Shown: in pieces, positions 7,338 to 50,462 of the stretch | How positions within the stretch are numbered: position 1 is the stretch's first letter | Layout of the letters: each line of letters opens with the position of its first letter | Sequence record: MZ311864.1 | Origin: Escherichia phage vB_EcoM_LNA4 | Reading direction: 5' to 3' (one strand) | DNA length: 64,000 nt | Notes under the pieces: generated by a model | Seen by the model: only the letters and a program-made list of their open reading frames with translations | The model's database searches: none | What the model was told of the DNA's origin: nothing | Translations under genes and position numbers: made by a program

Positions 7338-7352
7338 GAATCTTGAGGAAAT

Positions 7353-7622: not shown

Positions 7623-7632
7623 GGAGACTCTT

Positions 7633-9441
7633 GTGGCAGATATGACTCAATTTGAACAGGCTGTTGATCAGGTCATCGAAGACTCTGAACGCCTGCACAA
7701 AGTTGTCAACGGAACGGCTTCTGAAACTGTTGTTACTGAAGATGGTAGCACCATCCCAACAGTTCGTAAAGCACTTCTCGACAACTTATTTTTCAAGACA
7801 CCGCCTATTCCTTGGGTAGCCGGGTCTCAGGCAACGGTCTTTAACCAGCTTTACGCATTCAACGGTACAAATGGTATCCAGTGGTGGTATGCACCTGGTG
7901 CAACAGCAACCACCCCTGTAACCCTGCCTGCAAACCCATCTACCAGTGTAAGCTGGAGACTGTATAATGATGCGGCTGCGATGGCTTCCATCTATGCCCC
8001 TATCAACAGCCCGATCCTGACTGGTAACCCGCAGGCACCTACCCCTGCTGCTAACAGCAACAGCACCACGATTGCAACAACAGCCTTTGTGACAACAGCA
8101 ATTGCAAGCGCACTGTCCAGCATCTCTGGTGGTAGCGTTACTTTTGCAAACGTAACTGTCTCTGGGGCAACAACACTGAATACCCTTACCGTCAACGGCA
8201 CAACTACGTTAAACGGTCCGGTGAACGCAGACAACTCTACGGGTCGTTTCCAGAACCTGATCTTGACTAAGCAGGCCTCCAGCCTGACATTTGTCTACAC
8301 AGATGCTGCTAACCCGACATTCTTCAAGACACGTCTTGATCCTTACGCGATCCAGACCCATAACCTGCAAACAGACATTATTGTCAACGGTACAGTTTCC
8401 GCTGATGACACCACAATGTCAATGACGGGTGTTGGTAACAACGTCTTCGATTATGTTTATATTCGCGGTAATAACGCGAAAGATATCTCTGCTCCACGAC
8501 TGAAAGTTTCAGGGATGACTGAGGTAGAGAACCTTCACATCACAGGCTCTGTAACTGGTTTAAGCTTCAGTGTAAATGGCTTAGATATCAGCCCTAACTC
8601 TGTAACAACCACAGCAGGTATCACCGTAGGTTCCGATCTGCAAGTGAACGGGTCTGCAACGCTGGGGAACACCACGGTTTCAAGTCTTGAAGTGATCAAT
8701 ACCCTGAAGGTAGATGGTTCTACAACGCTTGTTGACTTCACAGCTTCAAGTGGTACAATCACAGGGCCTTTCACTGTCGGGGGACTAAGCAACCTGAATG
8801 GTGGTTTCACTACAGGATCAGCCAACGGTACAATCGGCGGCAACCTTTCTGTAACCGGATCAACAGAGCTTCTTTCTGGTCTGAATGTAACTGGCGATGT
8901 TGCGATCACTGGTAACCTATCAGCGACTGGCGATGTCAACCTGAATAACGGTTCCGGAACAACAACTGTCAACAACCTTGTGATCCAAGGTACTGTGACA
9001 GGGCTTACTGTTGACCTGACCGGACAATCCATCAGTGTGGCATCCTTGACCGCAACAGGATCTGTGACGACAGCAACACTGACTGTTCAGGATAGTGCAG
9101 ACCTTCCTAATGCCCGTGTTGGATTCTTGACGCTGGTTGCGGAAGATGTTGAGAGTTCCACTGCGAACTGGACCCCAAGCGGGACATCCAACATCTATAC
9201 GGTTCTGGTTGACGCAGACCTGACAATCGGTGCATGGCCTTCTCCACCTAACGCATTCTCTGCAATGATTTACCTGACGCAGGATGCAACCGGAGGACAC
9301 ACGGTAACACTCGACCCTAACTATCTGGTGCTTAACAGCGAAACAATTAACCAGACAGCAGGGTCTGTGACTATTCTTCAACTTACCTACAACGGGGTTG
9401 AAGATGGGGTTATCGACACAGTGATTGTTCGTCGTCCATAA
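7633..9441 (+). CDS. tail fibre protein
   Basis: 602 aa; fibre-like motif NSPILTGNPQAPTPAANSNSTTIATTAFV and long Thr/Gly/Asn/Val repeats. Confidence 0.6.
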   Translation: MADMTQFEQAVDQVIEDSERLHKVVNGTASETVVTEDGSTIPTVRKALLDNLFFKTPPIPWVAGSQATVFNQLYAFNGTNGIQWWYAPGATATTPVTLPANPSTSVSWRLYNDAAAMASIYAPINSPILTGNPQAPTPAANSNSTTIATTAFVTTAIASALSSISGGSVTFANVTVSGATTLNTLTVNGTTTLNGPVNADNSTGRFQNLILTKQASSLTFVYTDAANPTFFKTRLDPYAIQTHNLQTDIIVNGTVSADDTTMSMTGVGNNVFDYVYIRGNNAKDISAPRLKVSGMTEVENLHITGSVTGLSFSVNGLDISPNSVTTTAGITVGSDLQVNGSATLGNTTVSSLEVINTLKVDGSTTLVDFTASSGTITGPFTVGGLSNLNGGFTTGSANGTIGGNLSVTGSTELLSGLNVTGDVAITGNLSATGDVNLNNGSGTTTVNNLVIQGTVTGLTVDLTGQSISVASLTATGSVTTATLTVQDSADLPNARVGFLTLVAEDVESSTANWTPSGTSNIYTVLVDADLTIGAWPSPPNAFSAMIYLTQDATGGHTVTLDPNYLVLNSETINQTAGSVTILQLTYNGVEDGVIDTVIVRRP

Positions 9442-9446
9442 TATCA

Positions 9447-9474
9447 GGGGCTGTCTTCGGACAGCCTTTTCTTT
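9447..9474 (+). terminator. rho-independent terminator
   Basis: GGCTGTCttcgGACAGCC hairpin plus T-tract. Confidence 0.6.
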
Positions 9475-9485
9475 AGGAGGTTTTA

Positions 9486-11189
9486 ATGTTTCCTATTCCA
9501 AGCCTGTTCCTGCTAATGGCGGGTGGTGGTACAACACCCCTACCTCCTGGCGGGGTGAAAAAGATCGCTTTCTCCAGAGAACAAACAACTGGTGTAAAAA
9601 GGTCTATGGCTATTCTTCTAACAGACGGAAGACTATACACCCAAGGTGATAACGCGTGGGGTGAATGTGCAGACGGAACAACAAGCCCGTTCTACGACCA
9701 CTGGAAACTCGCTGCAAGTAATGTAGCAGATGTTTTCGGTGTTGGGAAGGCTTTTGTAGTAAAATATAATAATGGTGGCTGGCAGTATGCGGGGGACCAA
9801 GGACAATTTACAGGTGTCACCTCTAACATGATGGCGTGGACAAGTTTCCCATCCTCAATCACAGGGACTGTGAACCTTGCAAACCTCTCCAGTGTTATTG
9901 GTGGGGGTGGTAACACGTTGTGGTTGATGAACAATGGAACGCTGTATGGTAGCGGGTCCAATGCGAATGGGTGCCTTGGGTCAGGAAACAGTAACTCAAT
10001 CTCTATCCCAAGAACCATCAGCACCTCTTGTGTCAGGGCATACGGTCTACAGGCCTGTACTACATACCTCAACAACGTCGGTGTTCCTCGTGTCTGCGGT
10101 TCTCCATACGGGATCAATGGCTCGTTTGTTGCTATTATGAGTTATGCAAACGTAACGTTCCCAGGTGCCACAGGAACAATCTACGCAAAAGAGTGGATGT
10201 GTAACGAATCAAACACCATCGCCATTGCCTCCACCGGGGCATCAGACACAGATCACTATCTGTATACTCGTGGTATCACAACCAGTAATGGTGCATACGA
10301 GAAAGTTGCCGGGTTTGGGCCTTTCACAACCTTCCGTGTGATCGAGGGCGGTCAGTCAAGATTCTTTATCGCTGATGATGTTTTATATGCTCTTGGTGAT
10401 TCACAGCGTACCCTTGGGCTTGGAGACACCACAACAGCGGTAACTGTGCCGACTGTTATCCCTGTGCCTACCGGGGCAGATTGGGACCTTAGCAAGCTGA
10501 CTTACGTGGCTGACATGAAAGGCGATAACCTGTCACAAGGTGGGACTATCGGGCACTGGATAGTTTATGATGGGAACCTATTCTACACTGGGAGCGCAAA
10601 AGGATTCTTCGGGACCACAACCTCTGTCGGTAAGTTCACCAACGTTCCAGAGAACTCTTTCGAGGGTATCCGTGCCGACTCTATCACAACAGGATCAATT
10701 GGCGTGGCGATTGTTGGTACTACGAAACAGCTTACGTGGTCTATTGATCCACCGGGGGCTGAAATCTATGACCTACAGTTTAGCTCAAGTCATCCAGAGT
10801 TTGCAACAATTGATGCGAATGGGCTTATGACCTTCGTTGCTGAGGGGGGTTTTGACATCACCATGACGGCGAAGACAGGGACAAGCGCAACAACCTTGAC
10901 AGATACTTCAGGGGGTTATGCTTCAACACTTGGAATGGCTACTGATAGCCTTTCTGCGATGACTGTCGGTGAGACAAAACAGCTTGTTTATACGGTAACA
11001 CCAGCGGGTGTTGAGAACCTTGACGGGTACTCTATCTCCTTCTCCAGTGAAGACCCAACGGTTGCGACAGTAAGCTCTACCGGGCTGATCACAGCAGTTG
11101 CTGATGGTGGGACTCGTATCCATGCGACGGCAGCGGTCCAGACCGTAACAGCAGACGATAGCTCTTATCTGTCAGTGAACGCACCATAA
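9486..11189 (+). CDS. tail fibre/adhesin with RCC1-like repeats and Ig-like (Big_2-like) domains
   Basis: 567 aa; repeated GxxGxLG propeller-like motifs then two Ig-like segments. Confidence 0.5.
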   Translation: MFPIPSLFLLMAGGGTTPLPPGGVKKIAFSREQTTGVKRSMAILLTDGRLYTQGDNAWGECADGTTSPFYDHWKLAASNVADVFGVGKAFVVKYNNGGWQYAGDQGQFTGVTSNMMAWTSFPSSITGTVNLANLSSVIGGGGNTLWLMNNGTLYGSGSNANGCLGSGNSNSISIPRTISTSCVRAYGLQACTTYLNNVGVPRVCGSPYGINGSFVAIMSYANVTFPGATGTIYAKEWMCNESNTIAIASTGASDTDHYLYTRGITTSNGAYEKVAGFGPFTTFRVIEGGQSRFFIADDVLYALGDSQRTLGLGDTTTAVTVPTVIPVPTGADWDLSKLTYVADMKGDNLSQGGTIGHWIVYDGNLFYTGSAKGFFGTTTSVGKFTNVPENSFEGIRADSITTGSIGVAIVGTTKQLTWSIDPPGAEIYDLQFSSSHPEFATIDANGLMTFVAEGGFDITMTAKTGTSATTLTDTSGGYASTLGMATDSLSAMTVGETKQLVYTVTPAGVENLDGYSISFSSEDPTVATVSSTGLITAVADGGTRIHATAAVQTVTADDSSYLSVNAP

Positions 11190-11190
11190 C

Positions 11191-11224
11191 AAAAAGGCTC
11201 CCAATCGGGAGCCTTTCTTTTTAT
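11191..11224. terminator. bidirectional rho-independent terminator at strand switch
   Basis: AAAAAGGCTCCCaatcGGGAGCCTTTCTTTTT; convergent genes on both sides. Confidence 0.7.
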
Positions 11225-11652
11225 ACAGCGTTCTTTGCTTCGCCGTGTTGCCTGTGCCACTCTTCATGATGAATAGGGCATAGCCACATAACCTCTAAAG
11301 GTTTATCATAATCACAATGATGAGCCTGTACATCTTCACTTCCGCAAACCCCACAGGGCTGTTTTAATAGCTTGCCGTCACGGATTGCGTTACCTGTTTT
11401 TATATGCACAGATCTCTTCTTCGGATTCTTCTCAATATACTTCCGTTTTGCACGAGTCGCAGCCTCTTTCCCGATACCTTTAACGTATCGCTCTTTCATT
11501 GCTTTACGCTCAGGATTTTGGTCCCTTACCCGATCACGCTCTCTGAGACAAACCCTACACGAAGCGGTTAAGCCATCTCTCGATGCTGCCCTTTTTCCAA
11601 ACTCTTGCGGGGATTTAAGCTCCCCGCAATTGCTACAATGCTTATAAGTCAT
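11221..11652 (-). CDS. HNH endonuclease
   Basis: Paired CxxC motifs and His-rich HNH-like core (CPIHHEEWH). Confidence 0.55.
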   Translation of the reverse strand: MTYKHCSNCGELKSPQEFGKRAASRDGLTASCRVCLRERDRVRDQNPERKAMKERYVKGIGKEAATRAKRKYIEKNPKKRSVHIKTGNAIRDGKLLKQPCGVCGSEDVQAHHCDYDKPLEVMWLCPIHHEEWHRQHGEAKNAV

Positions 11653-11657
11653 TGATT

Positions 11658-12794
11658 CTAAAAGGGAATATCGTCATCGAAGTCCATTGGGGGAGTGTCG
11701 TCGAAGTCAACAGGCGGTGCCTGAACTGTACCGCTCAGAGGCTCCTGTACGGGCTGTGACGGCTTCTGACCTTCTTCCTGTGCAGTTGCACTAGCATAGG
11801 CATAGAACGTCGCTGCAAGGGCATACGCTTCGCGTGTTGCCTTCTCAAGTTCATCTGCGTCGATAGTCTTGCCTTTAACAGCAATTGTCGTTACAGCAAA
11901 CTTAACCGCATTGCCAACTGTCTGGCCTACATCCTTACCTTCAACCTCTGACAGTTCTTTAATCAGCTTGGTTGTGACATCATGTACCACCTTACCAGCA
12001 GCCTCTACATCACCTTTAAAGCCGGAAAGCTTCAGGTTAACGAGGGCATTCATGGCATGACCAGCAGACACACCGACAGGATCATAAGGTGTACGCTTAC
12101 CTTTTCCCCCTGCTCCACCACCCTGACCAGCAGGGCCATAGGCCTTGAAGCTGTTGATGATGTTACCAGTTCCCAGATCAACGAATGCCGCCAGACGACC
12201 ACCTACAGATACCTCTGCCAGTTGCTCATCAGAGAGAACTACACGACCCTCACCTTGTTTCTCATCGTTCACAACTGCAACGTTGCCTTCGATAGACAGG
12301 ATTTCGCCGTAGATCTTAGCACCCTTTCCACCACCAACCTGTGCAGGAGCACTTGACTGCGGAGGTGCGGCATCTGCCGGGGCATCAACCAGGATCTTGA
12401 TGTCCTTCTTCTTACCCTGATAAGAGGTATTGGTTTTGCCGTCTTTCTCATAGGTCTGTTTCTGGACCGGGTAGATGGAGATCTCCGCACCCGGTAACAG
12501 GTCTTTATAGCTACCGTCAGCCTGCTTCACCTGGAACTGGTTTTCGTATTTCAGGTTCTTAACTTCACCTTCACCGAAAGACACAAACTCATCAACGCCA
12601 CCTGCGGTAAGCAGGATAGAGTAACGGTGAGTTGAGGAAATAGTTTTCCCCGCATTAGGACCCTTGTTGATGTGGGTAACCTTGGCAGAACCATCAGCGT
12701 TGATACGCTTGATGAATACACGCTTGATCACGCCTTTAGCTTTCAGTGCAACGGAATCATCAGCCGGGTTCACTACTTCAGTAATTACGCTCAT
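11658..12794 (-). CDS. single-stranded DNA-binding protein (SSB-like)
   Basis: Gly-rich linker and C-terminal tip MDFDDDIPF identical in style to the E. coli SSB tail; start set at ATG after AAGGAG. Confidence 0.55.
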   Translation of the reverse strand: MSVITEVVNPADDSVALKAKGVIKRVFIKRINADGSAKVTHINKGPNAGKTISSTHRYSILLTAGGVDEFVSFGEGEVKNLKYENQFQVKQADGSYKDLLPGAEISIYPVQKQTYEKDGKTNTSYQGKKKDIKILVDAPADAAPPQSSAPAQVGGGKGAKIYGEILSIEGNVAVVNDEKQGEGRVVLSDEQLAEVSVGGRLAAFVDLGTGNIINSFKAYGPAGQGGGAGGKGKRTPYDPVGVSAGHAMNALVNLKLSGFKGDVEAAGKVVHDVTTKLIKELSEVEGKDVGQTVGNAVKFAVTTIAVKGKTIDADELEKATREAYALAATFYAYASATAQEEGQKPSQPVQEPLSGTVQAPPVDFDDTPPMDFDDDIPF

Positions 12795-12807
12795 TCTCTC
12801 TCCTTTA

Positions 12808-13155
12808 TTACTTAGTTTCTTCAGTCTGGGTTTCAGCATTCACACCCAGAAGTCTATCAACAATCAGGTCTTCAACCTGGCTCAACAGGTTCATCGCGAA
12901 GGACGATGCACCGTTCAGTTGCAGCAGGTTGTTACGATGACCACGAACCCATGCTAAAGCCTCTTCAACAGTGCCGTACTGACCACTGTTGATAACTTTT
13001 AGCATTTCATCACGCATACGATCAGACCCGATGAATTGGCTCATCTGAGCGCCAGCGCTTGAAAGGAATACAACAGTTCCAAACTGAGCCTCATCGAGGT
13101 CAAGGAAGTGTAGTTGTTCAGGTTGTTTGTCGATAGGGGTTACTTCTTCAGTCAT
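12808..13155 (-). CDS. hypothetical protein
   Basis: ORF with GGAGG RBS; start at ATG rather than adjacent TTG. Confidence 0.45.
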   Translation of the reverse strand: MTEEVTPIDKQPEQLHFLDLDEAQFGTVVFLSSAGAQMSQFIGSDRMRDEMLKVINSGQYGTVEEALAWVRGHRNNLLQLNGASSFAMNLLSQVEDLIVDRLLGVNAETQTEETK

Positions 13156-13217
13156 CAATCCTCCATTTATGAGTGAACGGGTATCTTACCCGTTTACACT
13201 CGGTATGTCAATAGCTT

Positions 13218-13424
13218 TTAGCGATTTTTCTTCAGCTTTTCAATGATGCTCGAAACACCAGCCACCCCAAAAACACCAAGGATGAAGAGCACGATCACAC
13301 CAACAATAAAGGCAATACCGAAATAGAGCGGTAGAAGAACAAGCCACCAAGACCAGGTGATCACACCACACAGTTTTAGTGTGATGAATACCAGCGCTAA
13401 TAGCGCCATAAAACCAATTTTCAT
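13218..13424 (-). CDS. small membrane protein
   Basis: 68 aa, two hydrophobic helices. Confidence 0.5.
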   Translation of the reverse strand: MKIGFMALLALVFITLKLCGVITWSWWLVLLPLYFGIAFIVGVIVLFILGVFGVAGVSSIIEKLKKNR

Positions 13425-13439
13425 TTTATCTCCCGTAGG

Positions 13440-13706
13440 TTATGAGTGCATCCACGATGGTATGGCTGAAGAGCCACCCATGAATACAGTGCCTGAAGCA
13501 GCAAATGTGTCCAGTGTGCTATCGAGGCCGTTATCAAAATCAACAGCCTGTGGCTTATGCGTCGTCGCTGGAAGCCCACAACATGAGCATTCAAGTGTTG
13601 ATACATAGCCCTCAACCACAGCGTCTGTCTTATGTCCGTGAGGACACCAGAACGATGTCATCTGTTTCAATCGCAACTCCCACTGAAAGAAGAGCTTGAA
13701 TCGCAA
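13440..13706 (-). CDS. hypothetical Cys-containing protein
   Basis: 88-aa ORF overlapping the next ORF in another frame. Confidence 0.3.
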   Translation of the reverse strand: MRFKLFFQWELRLKQMTSFWCPHGHKTDAVVEGYVSTLECSCCGLPATTHKPQAVDFDNGLDSTLDTFAASGTVFMGGSSAIPSWMHS

Positions 13707-14173
13707 GACGAATACGAGTCGTGACTACTTGATGAATGACTCGGTGTATGATGGGAATACGTGTCGCTGATCGTTGTTGTGTTGATGAACACAGCATCAT
13801 CATTTCGACGACGATAACTATCATCATCAGAAACAACACGACTCCGTGGTGGTGCCGGAGGAGCAGGTGGTCGGCTCTTAGACGCAGTTACTGCCCTCTT
13901 CAACTCTTCTGCCTTCAATGGCTTTGCATTGGGTCCAGGAGATGTCTTCGCAGGTGATCGTTCCACAGCAATAGCTTTGGTAACGATCTTCTGTTCTGCA
14001 ACAGTATTCACGGCTTTTGTTGCAATCTCCGAGATCTCTTCCTTTGTCAGGGGAGGGATCTTTGTGACCGTTGTGGTTGTTTGCGAAACAAACGTTGTGT
14101 TGCCGTTACCGACAGTTACAACCGTGTTGTCGGAAGAAAACAGACTCGCCAACCATTTGAAAAATTTACGCAT
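13667..14173 (-). CDS. hypothetical protein with low-complexity C-terminus
   Basis: 168-aa ORF, N-terminal hydrophobic segment; 3' part overlaps 13440..13706. Confidence 0.35.
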   Translation of the reverse strand: MRKFFKWLASLFSSDNTVVTVGNGNTTFVSQTTTTVTKIPPLTKEEISEIATKAVNTVAEQKIVTKAIAVERSPAKTSPGPNAKPLKAEELKRAVTASKSRPPAPPAPPRSRVVSDDDSYRRRNDDAVFINTTTISDTYSHHTPSHSSSSHDSYSSCDSSSSFSGSCD

Positions 14174-15393: not shown

Positions 15394-15573
15394 CTAAACT
15401 AACGAGGGCATCACTGCAACCAGTGCGCCTGCGACCATCCCGATAAACATTCCGCCACCAACTAACCAACCAAAATCCCCTGTTCCAAACTTGAGGCCAC
15501 CGCAAAATGCTGTAAGCACAGAACAGACAGTGATTAAAAGAAATACACTTATGAATACCAGTACCTGTTTCAT
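15394..15573 (-). CDS. small membrane protein (59 aa, below ORF-track cutoff)
   Basis: GAGGA RBS then ATG; hydrophobic MKQVLVFISVFLLITVCSVL... Confidence 0.4.
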   Translation of the reverse strand: MKQVLVFISVFLLITVCSVLTAFCGGLKFGTGDFGWLVGGGMFIGMVAGALVAVMPSLV

Positions 15574-16277
15574 TTTGATTCCTCTTTACGCCACTTGTAA
15601 GCACCATACACAGAGTTTAGCAGGAAAGTGACCCACATTGCAAGGTTTGCTGCTCCAGCACCTTCGTGGTGTAACGTCAGGTTAACCCACATACCTACCG
15701 CAACGATATTCACAATGATCCACACATACCACTGTTCAGCATAACGAGTCATCATTAAGTATGTTGCCAGTACAGACAGGATAGCTGTCGCTGCATCTGG
15801 ACCTGGAAGTGAGCCTTTCAGCAGGGAGATCCCTTCGGCATACAAACCAATCACAATCAGTGTACTAATACCCACCAACCAACGTTGTTTTGTGGTCAGA
15901 TAGTTCTTGATGACATCTGCACGTTCACCGTCAGCAGAAACGTTCAGCTTACGCGCCCAGATAATACCACCAATGACCTGCATAGGGGTGAATAGGACGG
16001 TGTACATGATCGTTTCGCCATACAGTTTATATGTGAATGACACATACGCATACAGCACTGTCGCGATGAAGCCCCAATAGTAGCTGGAAAGTTTACCTTT
16101 CGCAACCAAAATTGCACCGACGATACCTGTCACGGAAGAGATAAACTCCACCATAGTACCACCAGTGACGATAGAAACTGTCGCGATGGATGCGGAACAG
16201 ATCAGAAGCCAGAGGTATTCGAGTTTTGTCCAACCATAGAAGTCTGTCCAGGTTGTTTTTACGTATAGATTCATCAT
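15570..16277 (-). CDS. pnuC: nicotinamide riboside/NMN transporter PnuC
   Basis: 235 aa multi-pass membrane protein with PnuC-like Trp/Gly-rich helices; AGGAG RBS. Confidence 0.75.
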   Translation of the reverse strand: MMNLYVKTTWTDFYGWTKLEYLWLLICSASIATVSIVTGGTMVEFISSVTGIVGAILVAKGKLSSYYWGFIATVLYAYVSFTYKLYGETIMYTVLFTPMQVIGGIIWARKLNVSADGERADVIKNYLTTKQRWLVGISTLIVIGLYAEGISLLKGSLPGPDAATAILSVLATYLMMTRYAEQWYVWIIVNIVAVGMWVNLTLHHEGAGAANLAMWVTFLLNSVYGAYKWRKEESK

Positions 16278-17883: not shown

Positions 17884-18957
17884 TTATTCTCCTTTGATAT
17901 TCAGCAAGTTACGGACAGCTTCTTCGGCCTTTTGAATACGATCTTCGTAATCACTGCCGGAGATAACCACCACCTTGCTTGTATCGTAAGATGCTCTGAT
18001 CATTGTGTCAAGCAAAGAATGTGTTTCTTTACGCTTTTCTGGAGTATCCTGCAAGCGAAGAGGATCAGCAACCCACGGAACCTCTGGGGTGAGGAACAAG
18101 AACAAGTCATAGAAATTGTAGCCCTCTTCACGGCTCAGTGTCCGGAACAGCAGATCTGAGTAATCGATCTTGTCTGCACAAACACCAGAGAAGTGTGTGA
18201 TCAGATTTGTGGTGTCGGAGAACATTACCCCACGGTCACCCCAACCTGCCACCTCCATCTCCTTCAGGCGGTGCTCCATTGCAATACGCAGGTAATCCTC
18301 ACGGGTCATTGCAAACTCGCTTGAATGATACTCACGCTCACAGATCAGCCTTCCGATCTCAGGAATCCAGGCAGCACCGAACGTGTGTGCCAAGTGTTCG
18401 GTCATGGTCGTTTTTCCTGTGCTCTCTACACCAATGATAGCCACCTTCTTAATGAAGCGCTTACGTGCAGGCCACGACAAGTGGTAGAAATTCTTGTACG
18501 GGTCATTACGGATCATTGTGGCTGAGACAGGAACAGCTTTACGTTCTGCGTCGATAACAACATGCTTCGCTTCAGGGAAGAACTCACTGAAGTAAGACTC
18601 GTACTCCGGCTCAGAAGAGAAAGCAAAGTCGTACTTAACGAAAGGTTGTTTTTCACGGATCAGTTTTGCATAAGCAGCACCGCCTTCAGGGTATCCGGGG
18701 ATATTCGACTCATCAACGTAGTCAACCTTCACGTTATCCAGACCCTCATCGGCAATAACATCCAGCAGGTCACGATAGCGGTCAGCAAGGCCCAACTTTG
18801 GACGAATCCACTCTGGTTGAGCGTCAACAAATTTCTGGTCATACGACAGGAACAGATACAGGCAACTTACCTGCGAGGCCGCCTGGCGAATGAACTCAAT
18901 ATGCCCGTTGGTCAGCGGTGCAAATTTTCCGAAGATAAGGCCGCGAGTCATAGTCAT
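17884..18957 (-). CDS. nadR: NadR-like bifunctional NMN adenylyltransferase / ribosylnicotinamide kinase (no HTH domain)
   Basis: GKFAPLTNGHIEFI nucleotidyltransferase motif and C-terminal Walker A IIGVESTGKTT; start at ATG after AAGGA RBS. Confidence 0.75.
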   Translation of the reverse strand: MTMTRGLIFGKFAPLTNGHIEFIRQAASQVSCLYLFLSYDQKFVDAQPEWIRPKLGLADRYRDLLDVIADEGLDNVKVDYVDESNIPGYPEGGAAYAKLIREKQPFVKYDFAFSSEPEYESYFSEFFPEAKHVVIDAERKAVPVSATMIRNDPYKNFYHLSWPARKRFIKKVAIIGVESTGKTTMTEHLAHTFGAAWIPEIGRLICEREYHSSEFAMTREDYLRIAMEHRLKEMEVAGWGDRGVMFSDTTNLITHFSGVCADKIDYSDLLFRTLSREEGYNFYDLFLFLTPEVPWVADPLRLQDTPEKRKETHSLLDTMIRASYDTSKVVVISGSDYEDRIQKAEEAVRNLLNIKGE

Positions 18958-18958
18958 A

Positions 18959-19279
18959 TTATTGATCCTTCTGGCATTTGTAGACTTGTGACACACGGGT
19001 CACAGACTTTTTGGTTGGGTTGATAGATGACCCCTGATACCAGCGAGACTCTTCGCTCAGAACATTCCCCACCTGAGCATCCTTTTTAGGGATCACTGTG
19101 TCGATGCAGGTCTCACCCATACTATCCTTCATATGGGACCAAATGCTCAGAGAAAAACGCTCGATCTTGTTGCACACCTCGACCTTGCACATAGGTTCGG
19201 TCTGGAAATCATCATCTTCTTCCGCATGGGCGGCTCCAACAAAAGCCATAGCCAGCAGAGCAATCGTTAATTTTTTCAT
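18959..19279 (-). CDS. secreted/periplasmic protein
   Basis: Signal peptide MKKLTIALLAMAFVGAAHA; Cys-containing mature part. Confidence 0.5.
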   Translation of the reverse strand: MKKLTIALLAMAFVGAAHAEEDDDFQTEPMCKVEVCNKIERFSLSIWSHMKDSMGETCIDTVIPKKDAQVGNVLSEESRWYQGSSINPTKKSVTRVSQVYKCQKDQ

Positions 19280-34516: not shown

Positions 34517-34873
34517 TTAACGGCGGGAGATGTCGCCTGAGACAGTTTTTACATTGCCTTCTATTGTTTTTGCAAGTACATCTCCGGACACAGTGGTAAC
34601 GTCACCAAGTGCGCCGTTTTCGACATGAACATCACCAGAGGTGGTTTTGATATTACCAGCTACTGTGCCGTATACGTTGACATCGCCAGATACCGTGCTG
34701 ACCCCTTTAACGTCGCCGTTAATCACGACAGTGATGTTCTTTTCTTGTGTGGTGTGGATGATCTGTCCGTTAAGGATAATGTTATCCCCGTCAGACGTGA
34801 TATGAACATCCCCGGCCACAATACTACCATTGAGAATCTTGCCGTTAATGGTAATAACATTAGAGTTTACCAT
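34517..34873 (-). CDS. bactofilin-like beta-helical repeat protein
   Basis: Repeats of GDV.V.G.V.G....SGDV; start at ATG after AGGAG. Confidence 0.5.
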   Translation of the reverse strand: MVNSNVITINGKILNGSIVAGDVHITSDGDNIILNGQIIHTTQEKNITVVINGDVKGVSTVSGDVNVYGTVAGNIKTTSGDVHVENGALGDVTTVSGDVLAKTIEGNVKTVSGDISRR

Positions 34874-34901
34874 ATTTTCTCCTCTTAATAAATCCTTAAG
34901 C

Positions 34902-35081
34902 TTATCCACGCATCGGAACAATTGGCTCTAAATCCTCTTCTGGGTACAACCGCCAGCCCAGCATATCAAAAGAATAACACCAACCATCTTGCCATTGCAC
35001 ATCGGTGATTCTCATAACCCTGCCAGTGTGTTTGTCACGAACAAAGTGATTAACTTCGAACTTCGGTTGTGTCTGCTGCAT
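34902..35081 (-). CDS. hypothetical protein
   Basis: 59 aa from internal ATG with GAGGA RBS. Confidence 0.4.
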   Translation of the reverse strand: MQQTQPKFEVNHFVRDKHTGRVMRITDVQWQDGWCYSFDMLGWRLYPEEDLEPIVPMRG

Positions 35082-35235
35082 GAATGATCCTCGCTTTTTG
35101 AACTGAGAAGACAAACGTACCATGTTCCTCTACGTATTGTCTACCCATTTCTTCATCTTCGAAGATAAGAGTATCAACCTCAGACTTCACTGGCCTGTCC
35201 TTAACAGGCCGTGAGGTGCATACGATTAGCGCCAT
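35050..35235 (-). CDS. hypothetical protein
   Basis: 62 aa; ATG overlaps stop of RNA ligase gene (TAATG). Confidence 0.35.
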   Translation of the reverse strand: MALIVCTSRPVKDRPVKSEVDTLIFEDEEMGRQYVEEHGTFVFSVQKARIIHAADTTEVRS

Positions 35236-36281
35236 TACAGAGGACTCTCGTTCAGCTTCTGCATGTACCAACCACGAGATTTGTTGCTGATGAACTTCGC
35301 AACATCCTTCATGGTCAGGGAGTTAGCTTCCAGAACATCGCCTTCTTCCTTGTTGATGTCACGGCTAACCCAGGCAATGAACTCACCGATCTTAGATTGG
35401 TCGAGACCAACTTCACCAAGAGCCTGCTCAAGGCGGTTCTCAGTCACAGCGTACTCAACGAACTCACGCATGTTCTGGAGCCGTACCGGGTCAACCTCTG
35501 CCAGGGTTTTAACCTTGGATACAGAGTGCTTCTCACCCTTCACTTTGAACCACAGGCCGGAGTCTTTAGCCAGTTCTGGTTGCAGCGGGGACCAAACGAT
35601 ACCCTCACCTACACCCTCAACACCAAAGTGTTTACCAACCGGGCAGGATGCTTCCACCTGCATCGTCAGGGTTGTCAGATCGTTCTGTACCTGCTCAGGT
35701 TCATTGAACGGAATATTCACGGACCAGAAACCAAAGTCAAGAACACTGAAGATCCGCTCTTGTGGCAGGCCAATGCCGTACTGGAAGTTTGGTGGCATCC
35801 AGTTCAGGGCGTTGCCCTCTTCATTGCGACCAACAGCAACACGGAAGATCGTGAAGAAAGGTTCAACCTCACTTACAGCCACACCTTTCTGGATACCACG
35901 ACCAGCCCACTCACCAGCGATCTCAACCGGGAAGGAGAACGGTGTGCCGTTGCATTCGCATAGGTATTTAACCTGCTCCAGAAGTTCTTTGGTATCTTTA
36001 CGCACCATGAACGCAGCAAAGCCGTTGTTGTCGTCACCGACTTGGACGATACGTTCTTTGGACTGGAAAACAACCTCATCTTCAGAGTGGAAGACAATGC
36101 TGCCATTGGTCCCGTGGATCTTAACCGTACCAATGTACGGGATCAGGTACTGATCCGGCGCAACAACCTTACGCTTGATGTTACCATTCTCATCAATCCC
36201 GTCAAAGGTCAGACGATCATGGATTGCCTTAATCACTTGGCGGAACTGGTGAGTGCTTGGGTATTTAATAGGTTTAGTCAA
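35235..36281 (-). CDS. RNA ligase (Rnl2-like)
   Basis: Motif I VKIHGTNGS and GEWAGRGIQKGV match the T4 Rnl2 pattern; start set at TTG after AAGGAG. Confidence 0.7.
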   Translation of the reverse strand: MTKPIKYPSTHQFRQVIKAIHDRLTFDGIDENGNIKRKVVAPDQYLIPYIGTVKIHGTNGSIVFHSEDEVVFQSKERIVQVGDDNNGFAAFMVRKDTKELLEQVKYLCECNGTPFSFPVEIAGEWAGRGIQKGVAVSEVEPFFTIFRVAVGRNEEGNALNWMPPNFQYGIGLPQERIFSVLDFGFWSVNIPFNEPEQVQNDLTTLTMQVEASCPVGKHFGVEGVGEGIVWSPLQPELAKDSGLWFKVKGEKHSVSKVKTLAEVDPVRLQNMREFVEYAVTENRLEQALGEVGLDQSKIGEFIAWVSRDINKEEGDVLEANSLTMKDVAKFISNKSRGWYMQKLNESPL

Positions 36282-36663
36282 CTTTAGACTCCTTTTTAGG
36301 TGCAATCGCTTGTGTGATCAGGTTGTCGATGTCGTCAACCCACTCTGGGGTGCGTAGGAACAGCATCAGATTCATTGTCTGAAGCAAATACGCACTGTTT
36401 TGTGTGATCGCATAGATATCGTAACCATCTACCAGCAGTCGTTCAACTGTCGATGTACGGATGGGCTTATTATCAAAGCCACGGCCTTGATGATCACGAC
36501 CATCTAAAAAACCACAAATACAACGAGGCCAGACCTCTACGTGGGGACGGGCATTAACCACCACCCCAGCAAAGAGCTTACCACCGATGAATTTTGGTTC
36601 AGGAACAGTCTGTGCCAGACGAATTGGATCACCAACACCAACCTCAGATTTACTCATTGTCAT
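36274..36663 (-). CDS. hypothetical protein
   Basis: 129 aa from ATG after GAGGGG RBS. Confidence 0.45.
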   Translation of the reverse strand: MTMSKSEVGVGDPIRLAQTVPEPKFIGGKLFAGVVVNARPHVEVWPRCICGFLDGRDHQGRGFDNKPIRTSTVERLLVDGYDIYAITQNSAYLLQTMNLMLFLRTPEWVDDIDNLITQAIAPKKESKVD

Positions 36664-37354: not shown

Positions 37355-37536
37355 TTCCAGTTCCCATTGAAAAGCCGCAGCACCAAGAGGTTCATGAAGT
37401 ACAGGGGCCAAAGCAGGCCCATGAACACACCACCAAGAAGATCCATAGTGTCTAATCTCCAGAATTGCTGCGCTCTTTTCATGAAGATATAAAACCCTAC
37501 AAATGCGAACAGAAGATAGGTAATCCCAACCATCAC
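37351..37536 (-). CDS. small membrane protein
   Basis: 61 aa, two hydrophobic helices. Confidence 0.45.
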   Translation of the reverse strand: MMVGITYLLFAFVGFYIFMKRAQQFWRLDTMDLLGGVFMGLLWPLYFMNLLVLRLFNGNWK

Positions 37537-38024
37537 TTTTTCTCCGGAAGGATATAAACTGTTACATCACAATCCCAGAAAACAGATTTGATCATCGCTT
37601 CAATGACGTTCCAGTCACCACCTGCAAGACCAGCACCGATTTTCGGGAAGCCGATTTTGTAGTCAGCCATAGAGCCGTCTGTAAAGCTCTGTAAGGCCTT
37701 CTTCATCTGATCCAACGAATCATACAGGGCATTGTAATCGAGGTCACGTAGGCCCTGTTTACGGCGATTATAACCATATTGCGAATACAGATTAAATCCT
37801 GCGAGAGATCCGTCCTTCATGAAGGCCACAGTGAAGGTCCCAAGTTTGGCTTTATCACCTTTCTCGGTCTTCAGATCCGCAGCGTACATTTTAGGGAACG
37901 CTTCTTTGATCAGTGGAGCTATACCGCTACCCATTGTGCAATAACAATTGCAGCCATGCGCAAAAACATTAACCTCACCAGATTTCACAGCCTCAATTAG
38001 GTCGCCTACTTTATACTTAAGCAT
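37533..38024 (-). CDS. macro-domain protein (ADP-ribose binding/processing)
   Basis: 163 aa; AHGCNCYCTMGSGIA and GFPKIGAGLAGGDW resemble macro-domain Gly-rich loops. Confidence 0.6.
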   Translation of the reverse strand: MLKYKVGDLIEAVKSGEVNVFAHGCNCYCTMGSGIAPLIKEAFPKMYAADLKTEKGDKAKLGTFTVAFMKDGSLAGFNLYSQYGYNRRKQGLRDLDYNALYDSLDQMKKALQSFTDGSMADYKIGFPKIGAGLAGGDWNVIEAMIKSVFWDCDVTVYILPEKK

Positions 38025-43308: not shown

Positions 43309-43529
43309 TCTTTGCTCCTGTATAGAGTCACTTTGTAAAGATTCTGATCGTAAATCAAAAAAGGCCTTGACACCGGACCGACAGACCTGTATCTACGATT
43401 CACCTGAATGTAGCCGCGCTCCTCCAACTTGAGAACGAGCTTACTTACTTTCCATGAAGGAATTCCCAGCAGGAACCCCATCTGTTTCTGAGTATACTTG
43501 TTTGTGCGGAGCAGTGTCAATAGATTCAT
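43173..43529 (-). CDS. winged-helix-like DNA-binding protein (3' end uncertain)
   Basis: N-terminal HTH-like segment; C-terminal part overlaps neighbouring ORF. Confidence 0.35.
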   Translation of the reverse strand: MNLLTLLRTNKYTQKQMGFLLGIPSWKVSKLVLKLEERGYIQVNRRYRSVGPVSRPFLIYDQNLYKVTLYRSKECPEIKVTPTKVQSKNPASAGRGLRNFAKRLVTGCLTSIQRPEKS

Positions 43530-44035
43530 AATTGCGACAGCATGTTGATTGCTTCGTGATGTTCTTTCATCTTTGTCAGACGAAGATACATGTCATGGTA
43601 CTTACGAATACGAAGCAAGTCTTTATCGCTAAGTCCTTTCAGACGACGAACATCAGAGTTGTGTCGCAGGTCTGCGAGCTTAACACGGATTGCATCGTAG
43701 TTTCTTGCAATACCCTGGAAATACTCCTCCGGTGTCTGATTTGGTGTTTTCGTCAAAAGAACCACAGCATCTTTAACACGATTAGAGAAGCCCAACAGCA
43801 CTAGGTCAGCAGCCGTCACATCGGTATCTTCCACCACATCGTGAAGAGCCGCGATAGCCATAAGCTGAAAATCATCGCTCTTCAGGTAGTGCATCACCTT
43901 TAGCGGGTGGAGGATGTAGGGGTTACCACCCTTATCTTTCTGATTCAGGTGTCCTTCTGCTGCAATCTTGATAGCCAGGGCAAGTTCTTGCGCCGGGGTT
44001 AAAACTGGAATCGTGGAATTGTAAGTTCGTACCAT
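43526..44035 (-). CDS. HD-domain (p)ppGpp hydrolase-like protein (RelA/SpoT-type)
   Basis: GHLNQKDKGGNPYILHPLKV and AALHDVVEDT HD motifs. Confidence 0.65.
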   Translation of the reverse strand: MVRTYNSTIPVLTPAQELALAIKIAAEGHLNQKDKGGNPYILHPLKVMHYLKSDDFQLMAIAALHDVVEDTDVTAADLVLLGFSNRVKDAVVLLTKTPNQTPEEYFQGIARNYDAIRVKLADLRHNSDVRRLKGLSDKDLLRIRKYHDMYLRLTKMKEHHEAINMLSQL

Positions 44036-45027
44036 CTTTGTTGCTCCATCATGTTAAAAGGTTTGATCTTGAGTGTATCAAAACCATCAATGTTGTCAAG
44101 CCAGAATTCATCTTTATATCCAGCCATTTCCATCATCATTAACTCTTCCGGGCTGGGTGTCTCCCCTGCCATCATGTTTCTGAGTCTTTCATCCCAGCGG
44201 AAAGTGAATAATGTCTCATTTTTATTGCAAATTAATAGTGCTTCACGGGCATTTTTAATCTTAACACTACGATCACGTAGATGAAACACACTGTGACCAA
44301 TGTGATTACACTGGACATCAAAGTTATCCCTGTCTCTGAAGTCACAAAACACCAGGAGATCACCGATAGACAAGGATATACCGAGAATATCAATATCGTT
44401 TTTAGACCTCTGTGTGAATTTCGATTCAAGACCGTACCTGCGGAACTCCGCATTGATGAAAAGATCTGGTTCACAACGGCCCATTTGTCTGATAAGGGGC
44501 TTCAACAAGCCGAGGAACTCTCTTGTACGGCTTGAAAATCTCCAGGCCGAACCCTTTGTAAGGGCATCACCATCCCCATGACCACGGATAATGGCTGAAA
44601 CATTTCCCCGCGATACCTCTTCCCGCTCGAAAGGACTTGAGGTAGAGGCTCTATCTCTGATATCTACCTCAAGACGGGCTAAAAACCGCCTATCAAGGCT
44701 CTCTCGTCGATAATCTCCCCAGTCACACCCCCAGAACCAAGAGAATGGGCCATTCCTTGTGTCTACTTTCTCAAGCAAGCACCTAAGTATTTCAGCAAAG
44801 GGGTTATCTTGCATCACCGTGGGGTTAAGCCTTGAAAGAAAGTCATCACTGTCCATTCTTGGCGTATCCCAGATACCCAGCATTGCCTTTTGACGGTACT
44901 GTTGTTCTCTTTGCCAATGTTCAATCAGGTCGCGAGTTGTCTGGTCATCTTTTAACATGCTCCAGTCTATATCAGCAGTCACCTTTGGGACGGCTACCTG
45001 TCGAACATCAATGTTGAATTTATTCAT
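43999..45027 (-). CDS. hypothetical protein (first gene of minus-strand operon)
   Basis: 342 aa from internal ATG; sequence upstream of that ATG is promoter-like. Confidence 0.5.
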   Translation of the reverse strand: MNKFNIDVRQVAVPKVTADIDWSMLKDDQTTRDLIEHWQREQQYRQKAMLGIWDTPRMDSDDFLSRLNPTVMQDNPFAEILRCLLEKVDTRNGPFSWFWGCDWGDYRRESLDRRFLARLEVDIRDRASTSSPFEREEVSRGNVSAIIRGHGDGDALTKGSAWRFSSRTREFLGLLKPLIRQMGRCEPDLFINAEFRRYGLESKFTQRSKNDIDILGISLSIGDLLVFCDFRDRDNFDVQCNHIGHSVFHLRDRSVKIKNAREALLICNKNETLFTFRWDERLRNMMAGETPSPEELMMMEMAGYKDEFWLDNIDGFDTLKIKPFNMMEQQRWYELTIPRFQF

Positions 45028-45090
45028 GTTTATCTCTCTCTCAAACAAATGTACACAAAGCATACACTGTAAAAAATTTGAAATCAAGTG

Positions 45091-45119
45091 TTGACAGTGT
45101 GGAAGCAATCCAGGATAAT
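45091..45119 (+). promoter_or_regulatory. sigma70-like promoter
   Basis: TTGACA-17 bp-GATAAT upstream of AAGGAG and the 45158 start; divergent from minus operon. Confidence 0.6.
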
Positions 45120-45157
45120 TCCCCCAACAAGAACGGGAACAACCCAAGGAGTAGAAA

Positions 45158-46063
45158 ATGTTTGATGTGAAAAAGAAATTTACCGCCAGTGAGATCAAAA
45201 GTCTAGAAGAACGTTATCGTAAAAAGGTTGAGCGCACAAAGAAACGTGGCCTTGAGTTCAGCCTGACGCTTGATGACTGGTTCATGATGGGTGAGAAGCT
45301 CTTAGGTATTGGCAAATGTGACTATACCAACATGGACTTTAGTATGCGCTCTGTGCATGGTGAGAAAGACCCTCTTTATCCAACCGTTGAGCGTATCAAT
45401 GATAAGAAAGGTTATGTCCGTGGTAACGTTTGTGTTGTCCTGCAACGCGCTAACGAACTGAAAGATTGCTTGGTTGACAAGAAGACGGCAATCACTATAA
45501 TTGAACCACTTGATCGTGAGATCGTTCAGGCAATGATGCTGAACATGTCAAAAGAGCATATGGAACAACTGAAACTAAAATATATTCCACAAGAGGAGAA
45601 AGAAATGCCAGTAGATACTTCTGTAGTTGTAGATAAAGTAGAGATTTCTGAAGAGCGCACCGCGTCTTCCGCAATGGAACTTGCTGAACAACATTTCCAC
45701 AAACAACCACCTACGGCAGAAGAAACCACTGCACCAGTGGAAGAAAAGCAGAAGCTTCCAGACGATGTTGCTGTGGCACTGGCCTACGCCAACTACTGCA
45801 AAACATTCTCTGATGCGGGTATGAACGTTTCTGTGACCTATGCACAATTTAAGGCGAAGTATATTCGCAACACCTGCTCTCTGACCGGAGAGAAGTTGTC
45901 TGGAGAGCCAAAGGCGATCCTTATCATGGATCTGAAAGTCGGTTTTGCTAAAGACAACTTCATTATTGTGTCGAAGAAAATGGAAACGGCGCTTACTCAA
46001 CTGATCATTCAGACAGAAATGAGCCTCCCTAAAATCACTGCGATGCTCAACAAGGTGGTGTAA
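45158..46063 (+). CDS. hypothetical protein with internally duplicated domain
   Basis: 301 aa; two related segments ending in G(Y/F)xxxN(V/F)x(V/I)V. Confidence 0.5.
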   Translation: MFDVKKKFTASEIKSLEERYRKKVERTKKRGLEFSLTLDDWFMMGEKLLGIGKCDYTNMDFSMRSVHGEKDPLYPTVERINDKKGYVRGNVCVVLQRANELKDCLVDKKTAITIIEPLDREIVQAMMLNMSKEHMEQLKLKYIPQEEKEMPVDTSVVVDKVEISEERTASSAMELAEQHFHKQPPTAEETTAPVEEKQKLPDDVAVALAYANYCKTFSDAGMNVSVTYAQFKAKYIRNTCSLTGEKLSGEPKAILIMDLKVGFAKDNFIIVSKKMETALTQLIIQTEMSLPKITAMLNKVV

Positions 46064-49145: not shown

Positions 49146-49786
49146 TGTCATGGGCCTTTCTGATTTACTTAATTGATGTACTCACCACTGACGGTACTTA
49201 CAGCGGTTGGGGTTTCCTGATGTTCATCTTCGCCATTGCATACGGGGTCATGTATGCATTCCAGAAGTGCTATGAAGAAACTGACGGCAAGGTACGTTAT
49301 GGATTCTTCTTAGGTCAAAACTTGGTTCTTAACCAAGACTGGAACCACTTGAAGGCTGGGGAAACCATTGTTGTGACTAATATTGACAATGATGGTACGT
49401 TAAAGGTTCGATATCCTAACGGGGAGTCCTCTAATTGGCTGCGTTTTTCTACAGTAGAGCAGATCTCCGCCCAGCGACCTAACCCTGATGCGCCGCAAGT
49501 GCCTGTTCGTGACCTGACAAAAGGACCACGTAAGGTGGCAGTTGCAGGGCTGATCGTTTGCTTCCTCGGTATTCTGTATGCTAACTTTATGCCTCAGAAA
49601 GAGACTGCGTACAAGATGCTGGCTGCATATGTAGGTCAGAATGTGGTGGAGTCACCTCGTACTCAGCAACTGGCAGACAGTACGATCAAGTATCTTGATG
49701 CTCAGATCAAGAAGTACACAGACGAGCTTGATGCCACCGCTAAAGCAGAGCAGGCTGAGAAGGCCAAAGAGAAGGAGTCTAAATGA
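49145..49786 (+). CDS. membrane protein
   Basis: 213 aa, hydrophobic helices, charged C-terminus. Confidence 0.5.
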   Translation: MSWAFLIYLIDVLTTDGTYSGWGFLMFIFAIAYGVMYAFQKCYEETDGKVRYGFFLGQNLVLNQDWNHLKAGETIVVTNIDNDGTLKVRYPNGESSNWLRFSTVEQISAQRPNPDAPQVPVRDLTKGPRKVAVAGLIVCFLGILYANFMPQKETAYKMLAAYVGQNVVESPRTQQLADSTIKYLDAQIKKYTDELDATAKAEQAEKAKEKESK

Positions 49787-50121
49787 CAGGAATCGCTGAA
49801 CGCGTACTCCAGTCCTCAATCCGGGCGCAAGCCCGGACTGTTGATTCAGTCTTCAAGAACCTCGTAGAGGAAGTTGGGGAACTATCGCGAGCACTAAACC
49901 GCCCCTGGCGTTGTGATGAACCTGCAATTGGTGAAATTGCTGATGTTCTTAACTGTGTGATTGACTTGGCATTCTTGCTTGAGTTACAGGATTGTATCAA
50001 TCCTCGTGAGGATGATATGCCAGCAATCGTAGAAACAGTTCAACGCCGCCTTGAGCACTACGTTGATAAGAAGTGTGGCAAGTGGGATCGTTGTGAGAAT
50101 GCAGATCCGGGGGCGCTGTGA
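49783..50121 (+). CDS. MazG-like nucleotide pyrophosphohydrolase
   Basis: EEVGELSRAL and GEIADVLNCVIDLA motifs. Confidence 0.55.
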   Translation: MTGIAERVLQSSIRAQARTVDSVFKNLVEEVGELSRALNRPWRCDEPAIGEIADVLNCVIDLAFLLELQDCINPREDDMPAIVETVQRRLEHYVDKKCGKWDRCENADPGAL

Positions 50122-50462
50122 AGCCATTTGAAAGTAAGCGGATAGCGCTTGACTTCGATGATACCTTCACCCTAGACCCTCAAAGGTGGGCTGAGTTTGT
50201 CCACCTGTTCTGTTCTCGCGGGTCTGGTTGGTCGGTGAAGTTTGTTACCTTCCGACACGAAACGGATCGCAATGAAGACATCGAATACTGGGCTGAGAAA
50301 CTTGGCATTGACATCATCTACTGTGGTGGTGTACAGAAGGCTACAGTTTGTGCAAAAGCGGGTTGGGTTCCGGATGTCTGGGTAGACGACTTCCCAGCAC
50401 TGATCCCGATGAAACAACAACTCCAGGGTATGATCCTTGGCATAGAGAAGAACGGAGGATGA
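50118..50462 (+). CDS. HAD-like phosphatase (putative)
   Basis: IALDFDDTF DxDxT-type motif. Confidence 0.4.
   Translation: MKPFESKRIALDFDDTFTLDPQRWAEFVHLFCSRGSGWSVKFVTFRHETDRNEDIEYWAEKLGIDIIYCGGVQKATVCAKAGWVPDVWVDDFPALIPMKQQLQGMILGIEKNGG

Follow-up and report, generated by a model that had tools for sequence, protein, structure and literature searches.

Repair of broken tRNA by a ligase working with a polynucleotide kinase (PNK) is established for Rnl1 of phage T4, and the biological role of the second ligase of that phage, Rnl2, is unknown (PMC3884662). A related set of genes has already been described in rV5/Mydo-type phages: the relevant section of Iyer et al. (2022; PMC9503650) presents a neighbourhood with a T4-like tRNA ligase, a 'cyclic-phosphate processing receiver' domain (cREC), a nucleotide kinase and MazG, joined in some cases by a calcineurin-like phosphoesterase and a sirtuin, whose predicted function is to clear 2',3'-cyclic phosphate ends (see also PMC7824862). 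That section is centred on Rnl1 and does not mention an Rnl2-type ligase. Here we analysed the gene of an Rnl2-type ATP-dependent RNA ligase in Escherichia phage vB_EcoM_LNA4 (MZ311864.1), within a stretch of 64,000 nucleotides that is called the window throughout. We hypothesize, with a probability of about 75% and on the strength of sequence comparisons, that this protein is an active Rnl2-family RNA ligase which, far from being an orphan, would be one component of a distributed RNA-repair toolkit that the phage directs against host ribonuclease defences, with the beta-barrel protein encoded upstream as an optional accessory.

Family assignment and structure of the ligase

The initial annotation, made from the sequence alone, had recognised an Rnl2-like ligase by the motif KIHGTN and the segment GEWAGRGIQKGV, and this assignment was borne out by comparisons with Pfam, PHROGs, and the sequences and structures of the PDB. 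The Pfam profile PF09414 (RNA_ligase) was matched at 3.2e-8, with 34.3 bits against a cutoff of 27 bits, by residues 56-256 of the 356-codon open reading frame (ORF) called by the program, over positions 2-171 of the 171 in the profile. PHROG 548 ('RNA ligase') was matched at 9.7e-78 across the full length of the ligase, and T4 Rnl2 was the sole ligase found by phmmer among PDB sequences. The same annotation had proposed a profile search for RNA_lig_T4_1 (PF09511, the profile of the Rnl1 family) or Rnl2; the window ligase gave no Pfam match to PF09511. The protein is already annotated in sister phages, as gp007 ('RnlB, RNA ligase 2') of Cronobacter phage vB_CsaM_GAP31 (98.9% identity) and as RnlB of Salmonella phage PVP-SE1 (81%). 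These are orthologues, known by annotation only, that share the same neighbours (SleB hydrolase, rIIA/B and a macro-domain 'phosphatase') and show no substantive difference. The ligase was thus correctly recognised as Rnl2-type, and to this extent the finding is largely ordinary.

Conservation was examined in an alignment of 62 homologues with 43-81% identity to the window ligase. Invariant positions comprise K54, H56, G57, T58 and N59 of motif I, G123, E124, G127 and Q131 of motif III, E226 and G227 of motif IV, K246 and K248 of motif V, and many residues of the C-terminal domain, including R283 and D308. Conservation of the catalytic lysine of KIHGTN, on which the initial annotation had made its assignment depend, therefore holds throughout this alignment. 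In the sequence alignment with T4 Rnl2, R283 and D308 stand opposite R266 and D292, which are said, from mutagenesis by the Shuman laboratory, to be essential residues of its C domain.

In the AlphaFold2 model, which is confident (predicted local distance difference test, 92.1), an alpha/beta N domain is joined to a four-helix C domain by a linker that is disordered at residues 252-258; the nucleotidyltransferase domain takes up about residues 1-251. When the model was compared with the PDB using Foldseek, T4 Rnl2 occupied ranks 1-4 (top 2hvr/2hvq) and a DNA ligase rank 5, followed by trypanosome REL1 and Naegleria NgrRnl (Rnl5), and full-length T4 Rnl2 was matched better (7.7e-12 over 372 columns) than its isolated N domain (4.8e-8). 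The alignment by hhalign with the Rnl2 of Klebsiella phage JD18, an enzyme of T4 type (97.3% probability, 271 columns), ran from residue 43 to 336 of the query and from 26 to 327 of the 335 target residues, and the alignment to TIGR02307, the NCBIfam equivalog of T4 Rnl2, extended to position 312 of 326. Judged from these alignments and the predicted fold, the ligase has the defining two-domain architecture of Rnl2, in which a flexible linker connects a nucleotidyltransferase domain bearing motifs I, III, IV and V to a helical C domain, as in T4 Rnl2 (gp24.1, RnlB; PDB 2HVQ, 2HVR, 1S68). The Rnl5 ligases, Deinococcus DraRnl and Naegleria NgrRnl, are marked by a signature N-terminal domain and by having no C-terminal appendage; the window ligase has the helical C domain and only about 45 residues before motif I, and thus falls outside the definition of Rnl5. 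A likeness to Rnl5 lies in the extra beta-rich N-terminal module of some fused relatives (P0036, P0062 and P0071).

The window ligase differs from T4 Rnl2 in being only about 17-25% identical to it and in having about 20 additional residues, from a conserved N-terminal KYPST motif to motif I, and part of its clade differs further in having an added beta-barrel module, in trans or fused. Its score with TIGR02307 was 32.1 bits, below the 197-bit cutoff, and two other clade members, P0054 and Cr30 gp031, likewise scored 28-35 bits, whereas JD18 gp170, a T4-type Rnl2, scored 302 bits. Because of these scores we regard the clade, at the level of sequence, as a distinct and divergent phage Rnl2 subfamily. 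At E<=1e-5 the window ligase has more than 3000 matches among database proteins, a set that may include T4-type Rnl2.

As to the start of the gene, the ORF called by the program opens at 36305 (356 amino acids) and has the same stop as the shorter frame given in Table 1. The later start was judged better since a Shine-Dalgarno sequence stands at a suitable position before its TTG, and since it agrees with the GAP31 annotation and with the length of the database protein P0001 (348 amino acids, 100% identical).

End-healing genes and the ligase clade

The initial annotation had seen no clear PNK in the window, an absence that both a survey of Walker A motifs and a six-frame profile search upheld. 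The only ORFs of the window with a Walker A motif are a tail-region ORF (2756-4249), a NadR-like protein, a DnaB-like helicase, a PIF1/Dda-like helicase and a MoxR-like ATPase. The six-frame ORFs gave no match to locally built profiles of kinase, metallophosphoesterase, cREC or Rnl1, the last of which does detect GAP31_172, nor to queries comprising three Pfam-verified T4-type Pnkp proteins, a fusion of kinase and cyclic phosphodiesterase (CPD), and a CthPnkp-type protein. No tRNA genes were found in the window, nor does it encode the ligase together with a Pnkp as a T4-like pair; candidates were found only elsewhere, in the related genome of GAP31. In T4, too, rnlA, rnlB and pseT lie apart from one another, and it is therefore no anomaly that a single 64-kb window has no kinase.

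Three annotated ORFs of the window were considered as hidden healing enzymes and rejected. The 'thymidylate kinase' at 43999-45198 (minus strand) lacks a Walker A motif and gave no match in either Pfam or NCBIfam; it matches PHROG 10920 of that name at 1e-154, yet the label looks wrong. The HD protein at 43526-44035 (minus strand; 169 amino acids, annotated 'metal-dependent phosphohydrolase') matches the HD domain of SpoT/RelA hydrolases (TIGR00691 at 4.5e-15; HD_4), and by this resemblance is more likely a candidate phage hydrolase of (p)ppGpp or another alarmone than an HD-Pnk-like 2',3'-phosphoesterase. The NadR-like kinase at 17884-18996 (minus strand) has the architecture AAA_28 plus CTP_transf_like, which suggests a role in the salvage of nicotinamide adenine dinucleotide (NAD+) and not that of a PNK. 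A PnuC-type transporter of nicotinamide mononucleotide is encoded at 15570-16277 (minus strand), and with the genes for NAMPT and phosphoribosyl pyrophosphate synthetase, which lie elsewhere in GAP31, the NAD+ salvage set of the phage becomes an extensive one.

GAP31 (Seunavirus, Vequintavirinae; 147.9 kb) shares 93% nucleotide identity and synteny with the region, the phage of the window being a close, Seunavirus-like relative, and by position the window corresponds to GAP31 from about 116 kb through the genome end to about 32 kb. Outside this part, at 75-78 kb, GAP31 encodes in a tight same-strand block (11039-14093 of locus L003) an AAA_33 P-loop kinase, a cREC protein, an Rnl1 and a calcineurin-like phosphoesterase (Table 1). 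GAP31 has the rV5/Mydo-type neighbourhood introduced above, and its Rnl2 lies at a separate locus, whereas in its relatives L006 and L018-L021 the Rnl2 stands inside the cluster or is fused to the phosphoesterase. Among the genes of the GAP31 cluster that were profile-scanned, none matched a Pfam profile of sirtuin or KptA. Also present in GAP31 are 26 tRNA genes, genes of NAD+ salvage, and those of an RlaP nucleotidyltransferase and of a CCA-adding enzyme that bears an HD domain. The small AAA_33 kinase occurs in 625 phage records, often adjoining Rnl1. On this genomic evidence the healing functions most likely lie outside the window, in the full genome of the lineage, and the apparent orphan status of the ligase is most likely an effect of the 64-kb window. 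The initial annotation had suggested that the partner might be a HAD-like protein of the window or lie elsewhere; the GAP31 cluster argues for the latter, and the former is weighed below. Its premise that phage RNA ligases usually repair tRNA in company with a kinase was imprecise, being established for the Rnl1 enzyme and not for Rnl2.

Links between healing genes and the ligase clade were found in other phages. Two proteins, P0031 and P0032, are fusions in which an N-terminal calcineurin-like phosphoesterase precedes a ligase 58-62% identical to that of the window, and their phosphoesterase domain is 36% identical to GAP31 gp174 (1e-34). The metagenomic contig that encodes P0032 (L006) carries at 7263-11224, close to a DNA ligase gene, a same-strand block of cREC, a 135-residue ORF, the phosphoesterase::Rnl2 fusion, a small ORF, Rnl1 and an AAA_33 kinase, the last of which is 58% identical to GAP31 gp169. 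A comparable joining of phosphoesterase and ligase is known from Clostridium thermocellum Pnkp, where a kinase, a calcineurin-type phosphoesterase and an Rnl4 ligase form one polypeptide, and a true CthPnkp-type protein adjoins a clade member in locus L041. The window ligase differs from that enzyme in being of Rnl2 and not Rnl4 type and in lacking kinase and phosphoesterase.

A census of 80 viral loci from IMG/VR that encode members of the clade, scanned for up to 10 kb on each side, found Rnl1 in 20 loci, a kinase in 16, a phosphoesterase in 12 and cREC in 8, counts which represent associations rather than statistics since they have no background control. Spacing was often below 100 nucleotides, and the ligases of the lineages concerned share only 38-62% identity with that of the window. 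The kinases beside distant clade members include T4-type Pnkp (AAA_33 plus HAD_PNKP), fusions of kinase and 2H-type CPD, and the CthPnkp-type protein of L041, and these types place the small stand-alone AAA_33 proteins among the polynucleotide-kinase-like enzymes. The healing set is therefore linked to the Rnl2 clade in other phages, as far as gene and domain arrangement can tell, by fusion, by contiguity and by adjacency in the census.

Two further observations concern these kinases. Near Rnl1 and the Rnl2 clade, loci L058 (1497-2432), L074 (4232-5161) and L085 (1855-2787) encode an AAA_33 kinase fused to a 2H cyclic phosphodiesterase of fungal-tRNA-ligase type, that is, a Trl1-like healing module. 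Pairwise BLAST of the Cr30 ATPase and its neighbour with the GAP31 kinase and cREC was not significant.

The accessory protein and the macro-domain neighbour

Immediately upstream of the ligase gene lies an ORF whose stop codon TAA (36276-36274) is placed inside the ligase gene, beyond the ligase TTG (36281-36279), so that the two overlap by 8 nucleotides; the same overlap is present in locus L088. PHROGs and some GenBank records call the product a 'methyltransferase'. A role as an S-adenosylmethionine-dependent methyltransferase or Hen1-like partner was rejected, since none of 15 family members has a Pfam match and the predicted fold, a six-stranded beta-barrel plus a helix, is not a Rossmann fold. 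The model resembles instead the non-catalytic RFTS domain of DNMT1 (RFTS/SANTA-like, with a low Z score). On the basis of homology and the predicted fold, the label is a mis-annotation and the ORF encodes a ligase-linked accessory domain.

The ORF is homologous to N-terminal extensions of 100-120 residues in longer ligases of other phages, among them those of Salmonella phage SSBI34 (P0036) and Acinetobacter phage ABPH49 (P0062) as well as P0038, P0056, P0063, P0071 and P0144. The fused and the split form occur at the same locus, and both share the motif G-K-x-[FY]-x-G ... R-x-x-D ... I-R-T-S-x-V ... Y-A-I-T-x-N-S-A-Y. Where the accessory gene stands alone it precedes the ligase gene by 0-215 nucleotides in 7 of 7 loci, and it is missing from Klebsiella-phage relatives with 78% identical ligases. 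The protein may thus be an optional module of the ligase, possibly serving in targeting or substrate binding, an idea that we base on analogy with other Rnl families, in which flanking domains determine specificity (PMC4408790). A profile of the accessory domain alone found just 17 close relatives. A library search with alignment A1 was contaminated by columns of the ligase C domain, and only about 11 of its top 150 matches covered the accessory domain. Two candidate homologues, gp181 of Vibrio phage AG74 and the 135-residue ORF upstream of the fusion in L006, were rejected as not homologous to it.

Further upstream is encoded a macro-domain protein annotated 'phosphatase', which matched Pfam Macro at 1e-5 and the NCBIfam DarG macro profile at 1e-8 and, among PDB entries, C6orf130/TARG1, an Appr-1''-p phosphatase and DarG. 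A macro gene was present within 10 kb of the clade ligase in 16 of the 80 loci, representing about four lineages. In each of the 12 loci of Vequintavirinae type it precedes the ligase by 0.4-1.4 kb, and in phage SSBI34 it overlaps the gene of the fused accessory and ligase domains. Vibrio phage AG74 (L004) encodes a 40% identical homologue 3.3 kb upstream of its ligase, the T5-like Vibrio Thalassavirus loci L023 and L024 have a macro gene at 3.7-4.4 kb upstream, and the neighbour recurs in L036 and L065, which belong to two other lineages. A functional tie between macro protein and ligase is possible and should be regarded as a low-probability lead, open to readings either as NAD-linked RNA repair or as independent counter-defence (anti-DarT, or directed at NAD/ADP-ribose).

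Proposed role and setting of the gene

In the distributed toolkit that we propose, K54 would react with ATP to form ligase-AMP, as inferred by homology, the Rnl2-type C-terminal domain would assist in passing the AMP to the 5'-phosphate of an RNA end, and attack by the 3'-OH would seal the break, most likely a nick in duplex or structured RNA. Such a ligase would need 3'-OH and 5'-PO4 ends, and no enzyme predicted to produce them is encoded in the window. End healing in this lineage would be split over the small proteins beside Rnl1, roughly 70 kb off, namely the AAA_33 candidate for the 5'-kinase, cREC and the calcineurin-like phosphoesterase, and the toolkit would also include the RlaP protein, the CCA-adding enzyme with its HD domain and the 26 tRNA genes seen in GAP31. 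The 127-residue beta-barrel protein, apparently coupled in translation to the ligase here and fused to it elsewhere, is predicted to be its accessory or targeting module.

The surroundings of the gene would also suit an enzyme that has nothing to do with tRNA repair, since it is part of the early/replication arm and shares its strand with rIIA, rIIB, the PIF1/Dda-like and DnaB-like helicases and the family A polymerase. Such a ligase would be self-sufficient, sealing 3'-OH/5'-PO4 breaks left by metal-dependent nucleases or joining an RNA 3'-OH to 5'-P DNA during replication or repair. Rnl2-type enzymes favour duplexes with a nick, can take DNA as the 5'-P strand, and in T4 have no assigned role (PMC3884662, PMC4408790); moreover, most of the 80 loci have no healing gene within 10 kb. 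We nevertheless consider this unlikely, because some clade members are fused to a phosphoesterase, and several independent lineages have Rnl1, kinase and cREC as close operonic neighbours of the ligase. Alternatively, the healing partner might be encoded in the window itself, as a novel 3'-phosphatase in the form of the small HAD-like protein at 50118-50462 (plus strand). This cap-less protein of 114 residues has four HAD motifs (DFDDT, the T in VTFR, a K and VDD), and cap-less HADs often act on macromolecular substrates. Its gene, however, is on the strand opposite to the ligase and 14 kb away, and adjoins that of a MazG-like pyrophosphatase; the protein has no Pfam match, including HAD_PNKP, and no PDB match, no homologue of it lies within 10 kb of the clade in the 80 loci, and better candidates are found elsewhere in GAP31, all of which makes the partnership highly improbable. 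The MazG-like and HAD-like genes (49783-50462, plus strand) overlap by 4 nucleotides and may form a pair in nucleotide metabolism.

The macro neighbour opens a further reading, in which ligase and macro protein would act in a pathway linked to NAD+ and ADP-ribose, the macro protein either clearing the ADP-ribose-1''-phosphate released when repaired RNA loses its 2'-phosphates or stripping ADP-ribose from RNA ends before ligation. This would fit the TARG1/Poa1/DarG-like character of the domain, its recurrence upstream of the ligase in the Vequintavirinae-type, Thalassavirus, L036 and L065 loci, its overlap in SSBI34, and the presence of NAD+ salvage genes both in the window (NadR-like, PnuC-like) and near the repair clusters of GAP31, AG74 and L006; a role of macro domains in KptA-type repair has also been proposed (PMC9503650). 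The macro protein could equally act by itself against DarT-type or NAD-based defences (PMC9503650). Most of the co-occurrence, moreover, is shared synteny within one phage subfamily, and no KptA/Tpt1 or sirtuin domain was found among the profile-scanned genes, which covered part of the window and part of the GAP31 cluster, so that we hold such a pathway to be quite doubtful. A broader proposal, in which the Rnl2 subfamily would be a modular enzyme whose substrate choice is set by the hitherto undescribed beta-barrel domain, in trans or fused, and would form with the adjacent TARG1/Poa1-like macro protein an Rnl2-centred module for the repair of RNA with 2'-phosphate or ADP-ribose-linked damage, is speculative and, in our judgement, improbable. 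Membership in the distributed repair toolkit thus remains the reading that we prefer.

The gene order around the ligase is shared with GAP31 and comprises the macro 'phosphatase', small ORFs, the 'methyltransferase' ORF, the ligase, small ORFs, a SleB-type hydrolase, rIIA and rIIB; further along the ligase strand follow the genes of the PIF1/Dda-like helicase, the DnaB-like helicase and the family A polymerase. A terminator scan placed plausible terminators on the minus strand at 40129-40104 and 34511-34494, bracketing the region, and a promoter scan gave matches no better than chance. The minus-strand ORF at 34517-34921 encodes a protein of 134 residues that contains repeats of a GDV(x) motif and gave no Pfam match, and which GAP31 annotates as 'tail protein'; in the equivalent region of the phage record GEC_vB_MG some gene, perhaps a different one, bears the label 'ADP-ribosyltransferase'. 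At about 45100-45500 the coding strand switches between a leftward early arm and a rightward arm, at the minimum of the cumulative GC skew. A perfect match to TTGACA-16-TATAAT lies at 45474-45501 and a near-perfect one at 45091-45119, both on the plus strand.

Table 1. Positions of the ligase gene, its motifs and its neighbours in the window, and of the end-healing genes in GAP31 (nt, nucleotides; aa, amino acids)
Feature	Position	Strand	Basis and remarks
Coding sequence of the 348-aa Rnl2-type ATP-dependent RNA ligase	35235..36281	-	ORF list; TTG start at 36281, stop 35237-35235
Shine-Dalgarno sequence AAGGAG of the ligase	36289..36294	-	Direct sequence reading; 7-nt spacer to the TTG; located in the 3'-terminal part of the upstream ORF
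Motif I KIHGTN, with lysine K54 as the predicted AMP acceptor	36105..36122	-	Translation; aligns with KIHGTN of T4 Rnl2
Motif III segment GEWAGRGIQKGV (E124)	35880..35915	-	Translation; aligns with FGEFAGPGIQK of T4 Rnl2
Motif IV GEGIVW (aa 225-230; E226) to motif V FKVKGEKH (aa 245-252; K246, K248)	35526..35609	-	Align with AEGYVLKP and IKCKNSKF of T4 Rnl2
C-terminal helical domain, aa 262-348	35238..35498	-	Model helices 265-345; alignments to T4 Rnl2, TIGR02307 and JD18 Rnl2 run through the domain
Predicted accessory ORF, 127 aa	36274..36657	-	Start uncertain (ATGs 36657, 36663); GAP31_008 orthologue; PHROG 16099 'methyltransferase'
Macro-domain protein, 163 aa, annotated 'phosphatase'	37533..38024	-	TARG1/Poa1/DarG-like
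GAP31 gp169, AAA_33 P-loop kinase	GAP31, 75-78 kb block		Pfam 1.4e-7, above cutoff
GAP31 gp170, cREC domain	GAP31, 75-78 kb block		2.6e-14
GAP31 gp172, Rnl1	GAP31, 75-78 kb block		2.4e-20
GAP31 gp174, calcineurin-like phosphoesterase (metallophosphoesterase)	GAP31, 75-78 kb block		2.8e-7

What is new in this work is modest, namely the beta-barrel module linked to the ligase and the association with a macro protein, in a subfamily apparently without biochemical characterisation. Should the modular reading with the macro protein prove true, it would give phage Rnl2 a defined physiological role, while that of T4 Rnl2 itself is still unknown. The split set of kinase, cREC and phosphoesterase offers a tractable system in which to study the predicted RNA-repair activities. 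By tying the subfamily to RNA end healing, the phosphoesterase fusions and the adjacency of Rnl1 and kinase provide a handle on the role of Rnl2 in phages.

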